A stretch of 64,000 nt of DNA from Escherichia coli (lineage in GTDB: Bacteria > Pseudomonadota > Gammaproteobacteria > Enterobacterales > Enterobacteriaceae): NCBI RefSeq assembly GCF_044324875.1, contig NZ_CP172185.1; one strand, 5' to 3'. Position 1 is the first letter of the stretch. Every line of letters begins with the position of its first letter. The notes under the pieces are model-generated. The model saw nothing but the letters and a program-made list of their open reading frames with translations. It ran no database searches and had not been told where the DNA came from. Made by a program: the position numbers and the translations under genes. Shown in pieces: positions 13,750 to 19,615 of this stretch.

Positions 13750-14709
13750 TTAGCGCGCGTTACGCAGTTTTTGCAAACAACGCTTCAAACCATCATCCAT
13801 CGGCGCTTCGATACGCATCACCTCACCGGTCCCCGGATGGGTAAACTTCAACGCTGCGGCGTGCAGGAACAGACGATTTAATCCCGTGCCGGCTTCAGTG
13901 AGTTGTCTGTCAAATTCACGGTCACCGTAGCGATCGTCAAAGGCAATCGGATGACCCGCATACTGTGTATGCACACGGATCTGATGAGTACGCCCTGTTA
14001 CCGGGCTACAACGCACCAGGGTGGCAAATGCATAGCGTTCTTCCACTTTAAAGCGTGTTTCCGACGGTTTGCCTTCCTGACTGACACGCACGATACGTTC
14101 GCCGCTTTGCAGAATATTTTTCAATAACGGCGCTTGAACGCTCTTCACATGCGACTGCCACTGACCGCGCACCAGCGCCAGGTAATCTTTTTGCATCCCT
14201 TTTTCACGTAATTGCTCATGCAGAGAACGCAACGCCGAGCGTTTTTTCGCTACCAGCAACACACCTGAAGTGTCCCGGTCGAGACGATGAACCAGTTCAA
14301 GGAACCGCGCTTCCGGGCGCAACGCCCGCAAACCTTCGATAACGCCGAAGCTTAAACCACTACCGCCATGTACCGCCGTACCGGAAGGTTTATTCAGCAC
14401 CAGGATATGGTCATCTTCATATAAGATGACGTCCGCCAGCGCCGCCACCTTTTGCAGATGTGGCGAAACCGCCTCTTCTTCCCGTTCAGCAACGCGAACC
14501 GGTGGGATACGCACCTCATCACCCGCTTCGAGTTTATATTCAGGCTTAATACGTTTTTTGTTCACCCGCACTTCGCCTTTACGCAAAATACGGTAAATCA
14601 TACTTTTTGGTACACCTTTCAATTGGGTACGCAAAAAGTTATCGATACGTTGCCCCGCTTCGTCAGCGGTGATAGCAACAATTTTTACGGATGGAGTCTC
14701 TGTTTTCAT
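13750..14709 (-). CDS. rluC: 23S rRNA pseudouridine synthase C
   Basis: 319-aa ORF with S4 domain and RluA-family catalytic motif (HRLDRDTSGVLLVAK). Confidence 0.95.
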   Translation of the reverse strand: MKTETPSVKIVAITADEAGQRIDNFLRTQLKGVPKSMIYRILRKGEVRVNKKRIKPEYKLEAGDEVRIPPVRVAEREEEAVSPHLQKVAALADVILYEDDHILVLNKPSGTAVHGGSGLSFGVIEGLRALRPEARFLELVHRLDRDTSGVLLVAKKRSALRSLHEQLREKGMQKDYLALVRGQWQSHVKSVQAPLLKNILQSGERIVRVSQEGKPSETRFKVEERYAFATLVRCSPVTGRTHQIRVHTQYAGHPIAFDDRYGDREFDRQLTEAGTGLNRLFLHAAALKFTHPGTGEVMRIEAPMDDGLKRCLQKLRNAR

Positions 14710-15281
14710 GGTGGGCGATTCTAATTAGCCAACAGGATTCGCGCCACTCATTTTTCTATGCTTATATTTAGTTTTGCACCTTATTACTTCACTAGGTGAT
14801 CACTTTATTGATGGTTATTAAACCAATCACCAGCAAGAAGTGAAAAAACTGTGAGTAAGCGGGTGATAAATGGTAAAAGTCATCTTGCTATAACAAGGCT
14901 TGCAGTGGAATAATGAGGCCGTTTCCGTGTCCATCCTTGTTAAAACAAGAAATTTTACGGAATAACCCATTTTGCCCGACCGATCATCCACGCAGCAATG
15001 GCGTAAGACGTATTGATCTTTCAGGCAGTTAGCGGGCTGCGGGTTGCAGTCCTTACCGGTAGATGGAAATATTTCTGGAGAGTAATACCCAGTCTGTTTC
15101 TTTGATAATTGCGCTGTTTTTCCGCATGAAAAACGGGCAACCGACACTCTGCGCCTCTTTGAGCTGACGATAACCGTGAGGTTGGCGACGCGACTAGACA
15201 CGAGGCCATCGGTTCACACCCGGAAAGGCGTTACTTTGCCCGCAGCTTAGTCGTCAATGTAAGAATAATGAGTAAGTTACG
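14710..15281 (+). promoter_or_regulatory. rne promoter region and long autoregulated 5' UTR
   Basis: 572-nt non-coding leader upstream of rne; established knowledge that rne has a ~360-nt structured 5' UTR cleaved by RNase E; individual hairpins not mapped. Confidence 0.55.
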
Positions 15282-18200
15282 ATGAAAAGAATGTTAATCA
15301 ACGCAACTCAGCAGGAAGAGTTGCGCGTTGCCCTTGTAGATGGGCAGCGTCTGTATGACCTGGATATCGAAAGTCCAGGGCACGAGCAGAAAAAGGCAAA
15401 CATCTACAAAGGTAAAATCACCCGCATTGAACCGAGTCTGGAAGCTGCTTTTGTTGATTACGGCGCTGAACGTCACGGTTTCCTCCCACTAAAAGAAATT
15501 GCCCGCGAATATTTCCCTGCTAACTACAGTGCACATGGTCGTCCCAACATTAAAGATGTGTTGCGTGAAGGTCAGGAAGTCATTGTTCAGATCGATAAAG
15601 AAGAGCGCGGCAACAAAGGCGCGGCATTAACCACCTTTATCAGTCTGGCGGGTAGCTATCTGGTTCTGATGCCGAACAACCCGCGCGCGGGTGGCATTTC
15701 TCGTCGTATCGAAGGCGACGACCGTACCGAATTAAAAGAAGCACTGGCAAGCCTTGAACTGCCGGAAGGCATGGGGCTTATCGTGCGCACCGCTGGCGTC
15801 GGCAAATCTGCTGAGGCGCTGCAATGGGATTTAAGCTTCCGTCTGAAACACTGGGAAGCCATCAAAAAAGCCGCTGAAAGCCGCCCGGCTCCGTTCCTGA
15901 TTCATCAGGAGAGCAACGTAATCGTTCGCGCATTCCGCGATTACTTACGTCAGGACATCGGCGAAATCCTTATCGATAACCCGAAAGTGCTCGAACTGGC
16001 ACGCCAGCATATCGCTGCATTAGGTCGCCCGGATTTCAGCAGCAAAATCAAACTGTACACCGGCGAGATCCCGCTGTTCAGCCACTACCAGATCGAGTCA
16101 CAGATTGAGTCCGCCTTCCAGCGTGAAGTTCGTCTGCCATCCGGTGGTTCCATTGTTATCGACAGCACCGAAGCGTTAACCGCCATCGACATCAACTCCG
16201 CACGCGCGACCCGCGGCGGCGATATCGAAGAAACCGCGTTTAACACCAACCTCGAAGCTGCCGATGAGATTGCTCGTCAGCTGCGCCTGCGTGACCTCGG
16301 CGGCCTGATTGTTATCGACTTCATCGATATGACGCCAGTACGCCACCAGCGTGCGGTAGAAAACCGTCTGCGTGAAGCGGTGCGTCAGGACCGTGCGCGT
16401 ATTCAAATCAGCCATATTTCTCGCTTTGGCCTGCTGGAAATGTCCCGTCAGCGCCTGAGCCCATCATTGGGTGAATCCAGCCATCACGTCTGCCCGCGCT
16501 GCTCCGGTACCGGTACCGTGCGTGACAACGAATCGTTGTCGCTCTCTATTCTGCGTCTGATCGAAGAAGAAGCGCTGAAAGAGAACACTCAGGAAGTTCA
16601 CGCCATTGTTCCTGTGCCAATCGCGTCTTACCTGCTGAATGAAAAACGTTCTGCAGTGAATGCGATTGAAACTCGTCAGGACGGCGTGCGCTGTGTGATT
16701 GTGCCAAACGATCAGATGGAAACCCCGCACTACCATGTGCTGCGCGTGCGTAAAGGGGAAGAAACCCCAACCTTAAGCTACATGCTGCCGAAGCTGCATG
16801 AAGAAGCGATGGCGCTGCCGTCTGAAGAAGAGTTCGCTGAACGTAAGCGTCCTGAACAACCTGCGCTGGCAACCTTTGCCATGCCGGATGTGCCGCCAGC
16901 TCCAACGCCAGCTGAACCTGCCGCGCCTGTTGTAGCCCCAGCACCTAAAGCTGCAACGGCAACACCAGCATCTCCTGCACAACCAGGGTTGTTGAGCCGC
17001 TTCTTCGGCGCACTGAAAGCGCTGTTCAGCGGTGGTGAAGAAACCAAACCGGCCGAGCAACCAGCACCGAAAGCAGAAGCGAAACCGGAACGTCAACAGG
17101 ATCGTCGCAAGCCTCGTCAGAACAACCGCCGTGACCGTAATGAGCGCCGCGACACCCGTAGTGAACGTACTGAAGGCAGCGATAATCGCGAAGAAAACCG
17201 TCGTAATCGTCGCCAGGCACAGCAGCAGACTGCCGAGACGCGTGAGAGCCGTCAGCAGGCTGAGGTAACGGAAAAAGCACGTACCACCGACGAGCAGCAA
17301 GCGCCGCGTCGTGAACGTAGCCGCCGCCGTAACGATGATAAACGTCAGGCGCAACAAGAAGCGAAGGCGCTGAATGTTGAAGAGCAATCTGTTCAGGAAA
17401 CCGAACAGGAAGAACGTGTACGTCCAGTTCAGCCGCGTCGTAAACAGCGTCAGCTCAATCAGAAAGTGCGTTACGAGCAAAGCGTAGCCGAAGAAGCGGT
17501 AGTCGCACCGGTGGTTGAAGAAACTGTCGCTGCCGAACCAATTGTTCAGGAAGCGCCAGCTCCACGCACAGAACTGGTGAAAGTCCCGCTGCCAGTCGTA
17601 GCGCAAGCTGCACCAGAACAGCAAGAAGAGAACAATGCCGATAACCGTGACAACGGTGGCATGCCGCGTCGTTCTCGCCGCTCGCCTCGTCACCTGCGCG
17701 TGAGTGGTCAGCGTCGTCGTCGCTATCGTGACGAGCGTTATCCAACCCAATCGCCAATGCCGTTGACCGTAGCGTGCGCATCTCCGGAACTGGCCTCTGG
17801 CAAAGTCTGGATCCGCTATCCAATTGTACGTCCGCAAGATGTACAGGTCGAAGAGCAGCGCGAACAGGAAGAAGTACAAGTGCAGCCGATGGTGACTGAG
17901 GTCCCTGTCGCCGCCGCTGTCGAACCTGTTGTTAGCGCACCGGTTGTTGAAGAAGTGGCTGAAGTTGTAGAAGCCCCCGTTCAAGTTGCCGAACCGCAAC
18001 CAGAAGTGGCTGAATCGACGCATCCTGAAGTAATTGCCGCCGCGGTAACTGAACAGCCGCAGGTGATTACCGAGTCTGATGTTGCCGTAGCCCAGGAAGT
18101 TGCAGAACACGCAGAACCGGTGGTTAAACCGCAGGAAGAGACGGCTGATATTGAAGAAGTTGCCGAAACTGCTGAGGTTGTGGTTGCTGAACCTGAAGTT

Positions 18201-18467
18201 GTTGCTCAACCTGCCGCGCCAGTCGTCGCTGAAGTCGCAGCAGAAGTTGAAACGGTAGCCGCGGTTAAACCTGAGGCCACCGTTGAGCATAACCACGCTA
18301 CCGCGCCAATGACGCGCGCTCCGGCACCGGAATATGTTCCGGAGGCACCGCGTCACAGTGACTGGCAGCGCCCTACTTTTGCCTTCGAAGGTAAAGGTGC
18401 TGCAGGTGGTCATACGGCAACACATCATGCCTCTGCAGCTCCTGCGCGTCCGCAACCTGTTGAGTAA
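15282..18467 (+). CDS. rne: Ribonuclease E
   Basis: 1061-aa ORF; N-terminal catalytic domain (S1, DNase I-like, Zn-link CPRCSGTG) and Arg/Pro/Glu-rich low-complexity C-terminal scaffold. Confidence 0.98.
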
Positions 18468-18661: not shown

Positions 18662-19615
18662 TTATTTGTTGAGCTGGAACAGCGACAATCCCTGCATATC
18701 GGTAAATGCTTTATACGATGCCTGCAATGCCGTTTGCTGCATGATGTAAGATGAAATAGTTGCATTCCAGTCCACATCAACCAGATCGCTCATCTGCTGC
18801 GTTTGCCCTAAAGCGCGATCGCTACCTAATGAATCCAGCGACTCCAGTTCGTTCAGCTGCGTGCCTAATTCCGCGCGAACAGTCAGCACATTGTTCAGCG
18901 AGTTTTTCAGTCCGCGGTTGGTTTTATCCAGTGCCGCAGCGGCGGTTTCTTTATCCGCTTCGCTATCCGCGACCGGCGTTTTCAGGGCTGCGATGGCGCT
19001 ATCCAGCATGGCAAAAAGATTTGTTTCAGAAGCGCTACCGTCTGGTTCCGCTACCGCGTTGCTGGTAATACTGTCGAAAATTTTGTCACCCGTGTGCCCT
19101 ATCACCATCGAACGCGAAGCATCGACCTGTTGTTTAATACTTTCTGCTCCACCGACGTATTTCCCTTTCTCTTCGCTAAACGGCGCAGTCTCTGTTTTAT
19201 AACCGGCAAAAATGTAGCGCCCGTTACCGTCAGTGGTGTTCGCCAGATTCAGCAACTGGTCACGAAGCCCCTGAATATCCGTAGCCAGCGAGGCCCGGTC
19301 ATCGTCACTCAAGGTGCCATTGCTGGCGTAGACAATTTTTTCCTGAGCATTCTGGATAGCAGTGGTGACCTGGCTAAGTACACTCTCTTCCAGTGACACT
19401 TTTTGAGTGGCGAAAGTACGCGCCAGCGTGTACTGGCTGTTTTGCGCCTGTGCCTGGGAGAGAACAACAGCTTGTGATGCAGCAATGGGATCATCTGAAG
19501 GGTTAACGACTCGCTTACCCGTCGACATCTGTTCGCCGTACTTCATCCATTCTGCCTGAGAGTTGGTGATGCCGCGCATGTTTTGCTGGTACATCATCTG
19601 GGTACTGAAACGCAT
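18662..19615 (-). CDS. flgL: Flagellar hook-filament junction protein 2 (HAP3)
   Basis: 317-aa ORF with flagellin-like N/C heptad regions; last gene of the flg cluster. Confidence 0.95.
   Translation of the reverse strand: MRFSTQMMYQQNMRGITNSQAEWMKYGEQMSTGKRVVNPSDDPIAASQAVVLSQAQAQNSQYTLARTFATQKVSLEESVLSQVTTAIQNAQEKIVYASNGTLSDDDRASLATDIQGLRDQLLNLANTTDGNGRYIFAGYKTETAPFSEEKGKYVGGAESIKQQVDASRSMVIGHTGDKIFDSITSNAVAEPDGSASETNLFAMLDSAIAALKTPVADSEADKETAAAALDKTNRGLKNSLNNVLTVRAELGTQLNELESLDSLGSDRALGQTQQMSDLVDVDWNATISSYIMQQTALQASYKAFTDMQGLSLFQLNK

Follow-up and report, generated by a model that had tools for sequence, protein, structure and literature searches.

Several annotated 'genes' are known to coincide with the regulatory DNA of a neighboring gene. 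These include ypaB (nrdA promoter), sroG (ribB riboswitch), psrO (pnp promoter) and yaaY (5' UTR of an essential gene); the apparent essentiality or the intolerance to recoding of such 'genes' comes from the neighbor, and the effects of CRISPRi and of transposon insertion are specific to one strand or orientation (PMC6242692; bioRxiv 2025.03.09.641718). The yceQ gene of Escherichia coli K-12 (b1085) resembles these cases. The K-12 annotation ('DUF2655 domain-containing protein YceQ') claims a protein, whereas the evidence presented here, together with the literature, says that there is none; that yceQ is a spurious gene lying over the rne promoter and leader is already known, and several published studies conclude that it is not a gene. 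It is listed as essential in Keio and PEC (PMC5821084) and has been given 'synonymous' codon replacements in recoding projects, some of them non-viable (PMC7614783, PMC4652775, PMC11705086), the reason being that the RNase E leader was hit. Unlike ypaB, sroG, psrO and yaaY, yceQ overlies an unusually long, structured autoregulatory leader, and it is because of the length and structure of this leader that the chance ORF is itself unusually long and conserved.

The other closely related system is the leader itself, which is represented in Rfam by the rne5 family (RF00040). The literature (Jain & Belasco 1995, Diwa 2000 and Schuck 2009, as cited in PMC10989929) identifies one of its stem-loops, hp2, as the RNase E-binding sensor for feedback. 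The locus analyzed here shows no substantive difference from RF00040: the match is full-length and lies in the same position upstream of rne and on the same strand, with the same hp1/hp2/hp3 layout, the invariant hp2 apex and a predicted length of 361 nt from P1. Indeed, the window, that is, the whole 64-kb stretch of E. coli DNA that was analyzed, contains the E. coli archetype itself.

In the window, rluC (13750..14709, minus strand), a 319-aa ORF with Pfam PseudoU_synth_2 and S4 matches, and rne (15282..18467, plus strand), encoding RNase E of 1061 aa with Pfam S1, RNase_E_G and RNase_E_G_Thio matches, are divergently oriented and, consistent with the RefSeq annotation of E. coli, form the left and right boundaries of a 572-nt spacer (14710..15281). 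The local neighbors are yceF/maf (13015..13638, plus strand) and flgL (18662..19615, minus strand). The 801 nt around the spacer ORFs match 5,425 of the 5,426 complete E. coli genomes (5,397 at 99% identity or more), and the segment 14797-15281 is base-for-base identical to K-12, the sole 4 differences being located at 14713-14795. The first-pass annotation had described the region upstream of rne as lacking plus-strand coding, in agreement with the ORF list, in which the longest plus-strand ORF within 14710..15281 is 39 aa. A sub-threshold match to the Rfam naRNA4 (REP-type) family, 55 bits against a gathering score of 59.5, is present on both strands at 13646-13718, in the convergent yceF/rluC gap.

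The divergent arrangement of rluC and rne with a long spacer (~260-1040 nt) recurs far outside Enterobacterales, in a set of ~70 gammaproteobacterial loci that extends to Pasteurellaceae, Vibrio, Shewanella, Pseudomonas, Legionella and many MAGs. At the loci of this set that belong outside Enterobacterales, neither rne5 nor the hp2 apex motif could be detected. One Enterobacterales MAG (L014) carries the hp2 motif and an 808-nt spacer but has no rne5 match at the gathering level.

The only strict sigma-70-like match in 14600..15400 is the rne P1 promoter (14885..14914, plus strand), with a -35 hexamer TTGCTA, an 18-nt spacer and an extended -10 element TGgAATAAT; both hexamers are invariant in the alignment of 12 Enterobacterales species. 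The transcription start predicted from P1, position 14921, coincides with the first base of the Rfam rne5 match. Its distance to the rne ATG is exactly 361 nt, which equals the length published for the 5' UTR of E. coli rne (PMC10989929). The rne 5' UTR predicted from P1 (14921..15281, plus strand) contains the rne5 element (14921..15257), which scores 260.1 bits against a gathering score of 180 (E 5.7e-82), covers model positions 1-333 of 333 without truncation, is on the same strand as rne and ends 24 nt before the ATG. The remaining 211 nt of the spacer (14710..14920) are promoter and regulatory DNA common to rluC. The entire spacer had initially been taken for the autoregulated rne leader; the leader is indeed present, as indicated by the rne5 match and by the covariation described below, but the 5' UTR predicted from P1 occupies only 14921..15281.

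The species compared across the spacer were E. albertii, Citrobacter werkmanii, two Enterobacter, Superficieibacter, a Klebsiella sp., two Yersinia, two Photorhabdus and Acerihabitans; this is a sparse sample of Enterobacteriaceae among the matches listed, to which Salmonella and K. pneumoniae were then added. All 11 Enterobacterales loci tested outside MAGs and symbionts carry an rne5 element that passes the gathering threshold; none of the Pasteurellaceae, Vibrionaceae, Idiomarinaceae, Shewanella and Pseudomonas loci scanned does. On the plus strand, the leader comprises the 5'-terminal hairpin hp1 (14923..14962), which appears both in the Rfam consensus structure and in the minimum-free-energy fold, the conserved stem-loop hp2 (14972..15028; helices 1-4) and the large branched domain hp3 (15034..15248), which is closed by a long-range stem between 15034-15044 and 15238-15248. 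The invariant apex of hp2, ACGCAGCAAUGGCGUAAGACGUA, is found exactly in all 14 Enterobacterales loci from other species and is absent outside the order; 6 pairs of this stem-loop show compensatory changes. Helices 5-11 of hp3 are 92-100% paired, include 8 compensatory pairs and agree with the Rfam consensus. Directly before the rne ATG, the ribosome-binding region consists of a block, AATAATGAGTAAGTTACG (15262..15281, plus strand), that is nearly invariant in 12 species.

Applied to 13 leaders, RNAalifold yields 61 pairs in 11 helices (hp2 and hp3). In these pairs, 97.2% of the alignment cells are paired, and 14 of the 61 (38 cells) show compensatory double changes, which is not matched by any of 500 shuffles; when the partners are slid by 1-3 columns, pairing falls to 29-40%, with 0-4 double-change pairs. 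The structure was scored on the alignment from which it was derived, so that this contrast is inflated, but it agrees with the independent Rfam model. The same pairs contain 71 G·U cells compared to 7 A·C cells. Because G·U becomes an A·C mismatch on the complement, this 71:7 bias places the conserved structure in the plus-strand (rne-sense) RNA. Thermodynamic fold z-scores were also considered as strand evidence and were dropped in favor of covariation and the G·U/A·C comparison because they do not discriminate between the strands (plus -0.66, minus -1.9). Some lineages carry additional sequence in the leader. In K. pneumoniae (L084), a 79-nt hairpin-forming insertion follows the equivalent of 15059, in a variable part of the leader, and the rne5 match still scores 217 bits; a protein call from a Citrobacter-like metagenome (P0010) has an insertion at the same place. 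This insertion may represent a small mobile repeat or an insertion hotspot.

Conservation across 14710..14920 is uneven in the alignment: the segments 14851-14920, with the DnaA boxes and P1, and 14710-14769 are conserved, whereas the intervening stretch 14770-14850, which takes in the last codons of the minus-strand 124-aa ORF discussed below, is variable. The double DnaA box (14849..14870; tTTATCACCCgcTTACTCACAg when read on the minus strand) lies 51-72 nt upstream of the P1 start, and its sequence has a single exact match in the window. A DnaA ChIP-seq peak with the double-box sequence lies at K-12 position 1,144,772; the 2024 study that reported it regarded this site, upstream of rne, as a novel one for DnaA (PMC11317965). 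Escherichia, Citrobacter, Enterobacter and Superficieibacter all retain the double box, which is not conserved in Klebsiella sp. BIGb0407 or Yersinia. In E. coli O121 (NZ_CP119441), a 1.4-kb ISEc11 element of the IS110 family is inserted at the position corresponding to 14844-14846, immediately upstream of the DnaA boxes. The insertion (1562-3000 of locus L002) truncates the yceQ ORF by its last 6 codons and splits the upstream spacer from rne, so the DNA upstream of approximately -75 relative to the P1 start is separable from rne in nature.

On the minus strand, the conserved segment 14710-14769 reads AGAAAAA-tGaGTGGCGC, a spacer, TAGAAT, 8 nt and the rluC ATG, with an A-tract preceding the blocks. 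A relaxed scan and an eleven-species alignment single out GTGGCGC (14741-14747) and TAGAAT (14718-14723), which are separated by a spacer that is constant in length and variable in sequence in the eleven species. This pattern looks like a rluC promoter (candidate, 14718..14747, minus strand). The block contains no Shine-Dalgarno sequence ahead of the rluC ATG, and RNAalifold finds no supported structure in it, which is the reason to prefer a promoter over an RNA element in this segment. If the TAGAAT site is indeed the rluC promoter, the rluC mRNA would be leaderless or nearly so, and no transcript through yceQ would be needed. On the opposite strand, the relaxed scan also detects a -10-like hexamer, TATATT (14763..14768), with a predicted start at ~14775; Escherichia, Citrobacter and Enterobacter share this hexamer, and Yersinia does not. 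Additional rne promoters were reportedly described by Ow et al. in 2002, and TATATT is an uncertain candidate for an upstream rne promoter, possibly one of these. A sigma-38 SELEX entry that names yceQ was set aside given that, in older coordinates, it is typed within rluC and so falls outside this spacer.

The ORF list contains two minus-strand ORFs in the spacer, a 124-aa ORF with a GTG start (14827..15201) and, in a different minus frame, a 62-aa ORF with an ATG start (15021..15209), precisely at the coordinates given in the first-pass annotation. The latter had also noted that an ORF is annotated at this position in K-12; b1085 (106 aa; NC_000913 1144502..1144822) maps to 14827..15147 of the window (minus strand), inside the 124-aa ORF and with 100% identity. 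The K-12 start is an internal GTG of the 124-aa ORF, which is the same frame extended by 18 upstream codons. Of 5000 dinucleotide-preserving shuffles of the 572-nt spacer, 0.6% contain an ORF of 124 aa or more on the minus strand, and 1.2% do when both strands are considered; the longest ORF averages 66 aa. The 124-aa ORF is longer than typical for one region, yet unremarkable genome-wide, because the 64-kb window alone contains 52 wrong-frame 'shadow' ORFs of real genes with at least 100 aa, 29 of these with at least 120 aa. An ORF of 560 aa that runs opposite the C-terminal half of rne (16773-18455, minus strand) gives a further yardstick for the length of chance ORFs in this region; it presumably reflects the biased composition of the low-complexity, Arg/Glu/Pro-rich scaffold region.

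Coding potential was assessed from the distribution of variable sites over codon positions in 8 Enterobacteriaceae and from codon usage. The three-base periodicity of substitutions is strong in rluC (71/34/285 variable sites at codon positions 1/2/3, p=5e-62) and in rne (37/6/327, p=4e-111) and absent, in the same 8 Enterobacteriaceae, from both minus-strand ORFs (52/39/47, p=0.40, for the yceQ frame; 20/18/23, p=0.74, for the 62-aa frame). The codon-usage score is -0.15 per codon for the 124-aa ORF and -0.24 for the 62-aa ORF, compared to +0.31±0.09 (minimum +0.11) for the real genes in the window and -0.16±0.14 for their wrong frames. Each of the flanking genes, rluC and rne, shows 94 synonymous codon changes between E. 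coli and E. albertii, whereas the 375-nt span of the ORF differs by only 4 nucleotide changes, 3 of which are non-synonymous. So few changes, most of them non-synonymous, imply selection on the nucleotides, not on a protein. Nearly all of the ~5,400 E. coli genomes, and E. albertii as well, appear to keep the ORF intact, with at least 99% identity; this intactness is uninformative because the two species differ by only the 4 substitutions in this span.

Among the species compared, only E. coli and E. albertii keep the yceQ frame intact; in Enterobacter sp. Bisph1 it is also open, via compensating 1-nt indels. Citrobacter has two 1-nt insertions in this frame, Salmonella has one 1-nt insertion plus stops, and two Klebsiella, Enterobacter BIGb0383 and Superficieibacter each carry several 1-nt indels. 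After the peptide '...SLFHC', most genera have TAA where Escherichia has AAG, so the last 27 codons of the ORF are Escherichia-specific. Frameshift variants of yceQ were observed in E. coli as well (P0001 and P0007), the latter resulting from a 1-nt change in a T-run in the hp2 flank.

The 124-, 106- and 62-aa products have no match in Pfam-A (E<=0.1) or in NCBIfam (E<=1), and the DUF2655 name of YceQ persists only in source annotations, with no current Pfam or NCBIfam model matching. Among 5.8 billion protein clusters, there are only 32 relatives, all from Enterobacteriaceae, 68-156 aa in length and covering 28-98% of the query. These clusters switch frame relative to one another, which is the pattern that sporadic gene calls over conserved non-coding DNA would produce. 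In the 20 RefSeq genomes listed of the 5,425 that match, PGAP annotates rne and rluC at this locus and does not annotate yceQ. An AGAGG Shine-Dalgarno-like motif is located 6 nt upstream of the K-12 GTG start; its presence can be explained without translation because it is part of the conserved GCGCCUC stem of the leader. Judged by their sequences, the minus-strand ORFs fail every coding test and are best classified as non-coding. The suggestion of the first-pass annotation that these are chance ORFs over regulatory DNA is therefore supported by the lack of periodicity, the broken frames, the non-coding codon usage and the lack of a protein family; in particular, conservation of the frame across Enterobacteriaceae, which it had named as a check, breaks down in the sister genera.

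Published experiments on yceQ bear on the same question. Ribosome profiling, also named as a check in the first-pass annotation, is covered by the work of Price et al., who found no YceQ reads in three conditions, reported disruption of the ORF in some strains and viable transposon insertions in yceQ, and concluded that no protein is encoded (PMC5053530). TraDIS insertions in yceQ are tolerated in one orientation only (PMC5821084), and in CRISPRi experiments harm is confined to guides on the strand that blocks rne (PMC6242692). An evolved strain acquired, and tolerated, a nonsense mutation at codon 8 of yceQ (PMC10249474); this stop maps to 15124, where the leader forms a hairpin loop of 5 nt. 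By contrast, three serine codons of yceQ could not be exchanged for 'synonymous' ones in genome synthesis work without loss of viability (PMC7614783); a later preprint ascribes this to a disturbance in how the essential gene next to yceQ is regulated (bioRxiv 2025.03.09.641718). From the spacing of the changes (offsets of 14 and 24 nt as reported, 15 and 24 nt in the window), we infer that the recoded serines are codons 2, 7 and 15, at 15142-15144, 15127-15129 and 15103-15105, respectively. Codon 2 lies within an invariant stem, where its partner is 15209-15211, and codon 7 has two paired bases. For a protein-coding gene, one would expect the opposite of a tolerated stop combined with lethal synonymous changes.

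Two alternatives to a purely regulatory role of the spacer have to be considered. It could be argued that yceQ is a real but young gene, an Escherichia-restricted orphan or proto-gene over the rne leader that arose when the TAA stop of the sister genera became AAG and is translated weakly or only under certain conditions. Such an origin would be compatible with the nominally unusual length of the ORF for this region (p about 0.006-0.012), the AGAGG motif ahead of the GTG at 15147, the open frame shared by E. coli and E. albertii when most other genera have TAA in place of the Escherichia AAG, and the gene entry that the K-12 annotation still carries. However, a translated gene is difficult to reconcile with zero ribosome-profiling reads in three conditions (PMC5053530), with the tolerance of the codon-8 stop (PMC10249474) and of transposon insertions (PMC5821084), and with the lack of a defect caused by guides on the yceQ coding strand (PMC6242692). 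The lethality of synonymous changes is the opposite of what selection at the protein level predicts, 3 of the 4 differences between E. coli and E. albertii are non-synonymous, periodicity is absent, codon usage is of the non-coding type, and frameshifted E. coli variants (P0001, P0007) exist. We consider the existence of such a gene extremely improbable.

A different possibility is that a minus-strand transcript running through the leader, either a long 5' UTR of rluC or an antisense RNA, modulates rne, through transcriptional interference or by base-pairing with the leader, in which case the locus would be a true divergent excludon. The rne-yceQ pair is in fact listed as a divergent excludon by ExcludonFinder, a method that extends the coverage of each gene until it drops and then tests for overlap (PMC12288877). 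We rejected this listing as evidence of minus-strand transcription because it is a trivial consequence of a CDS being annotated inside the rne UTR. The minus-strand fold z-score (-1.9) and weak promoter-like sites found on this strand by the relaxed scan are compatible with an antisense transcript, but the strict promoter scan of 14600..15400 finds nothing on the minus strand, and the best candidate for the rluC promoter abuts the rluC ATG, so that transcription through yceQ is not needed. Furthermore, the 71:7 excess of G·U over A·C places the conserved structure on the plus strand, and fitness is unaffected by guides on the other strand (PMC6242692). A regulatory transcript of this kind therefore appears very unlikely. 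Similarly, there is only a slight chance that the minus strand is not silent in one way or another, with yceQ acting as a proto-gene in conditions that have not been profiled or an antisense transcript adding a layer to RNase E homeostasis.

Thus, we hold with high confidence that the spacer consists of the rne promoter and the self-regulating rne leader, and that yceQ and the 62-aa ORF are non-coding by-products, not genes. The anatomy of the locus, the covariation of the RNA, the strand bias and the absence of a coding signal come from the present analysis, and autoregulation, the genetic tests and the lack of ribosome footprints are taken from the literature. In the scheme that we favor, the sigma-70 promoter P1 (14885-14914), with the DnaA double box just upstream, would start rne transcription at ~14921, and the resulting 361-nt leader would fold into hp1, hp2 and the branched hp3 (the rne5 element). 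According to the literature, RNase E would bind hp2 and speed the decay of its own mRNA, so that the RNase E level is set by feedback. The leader is almost constant at every nucleotide, and its reverse complement happens to be stop-free in one frame in the Escherichia lineage, giving rise to the 124-aa ORF (yceQ in K-12) and the 62-aa ORF. The former 'essentiality' of yceQ is that of the underlying rne promoter and leader.

The scientific gain from this assignment is small, the rne leader being a textbook autoregulatory element, and its practical value is that of an annotation warning: a spurious CDS has misled essentiality lists, recoding projects and excludon counts. The locus is also a teaching case of a long ORF with extreme sequence conservation that is nevertheless non-coding, and codon periodicity, indel lengths and the strand test based on G·U versus A·C are quick discriminators for ORFs of this type.
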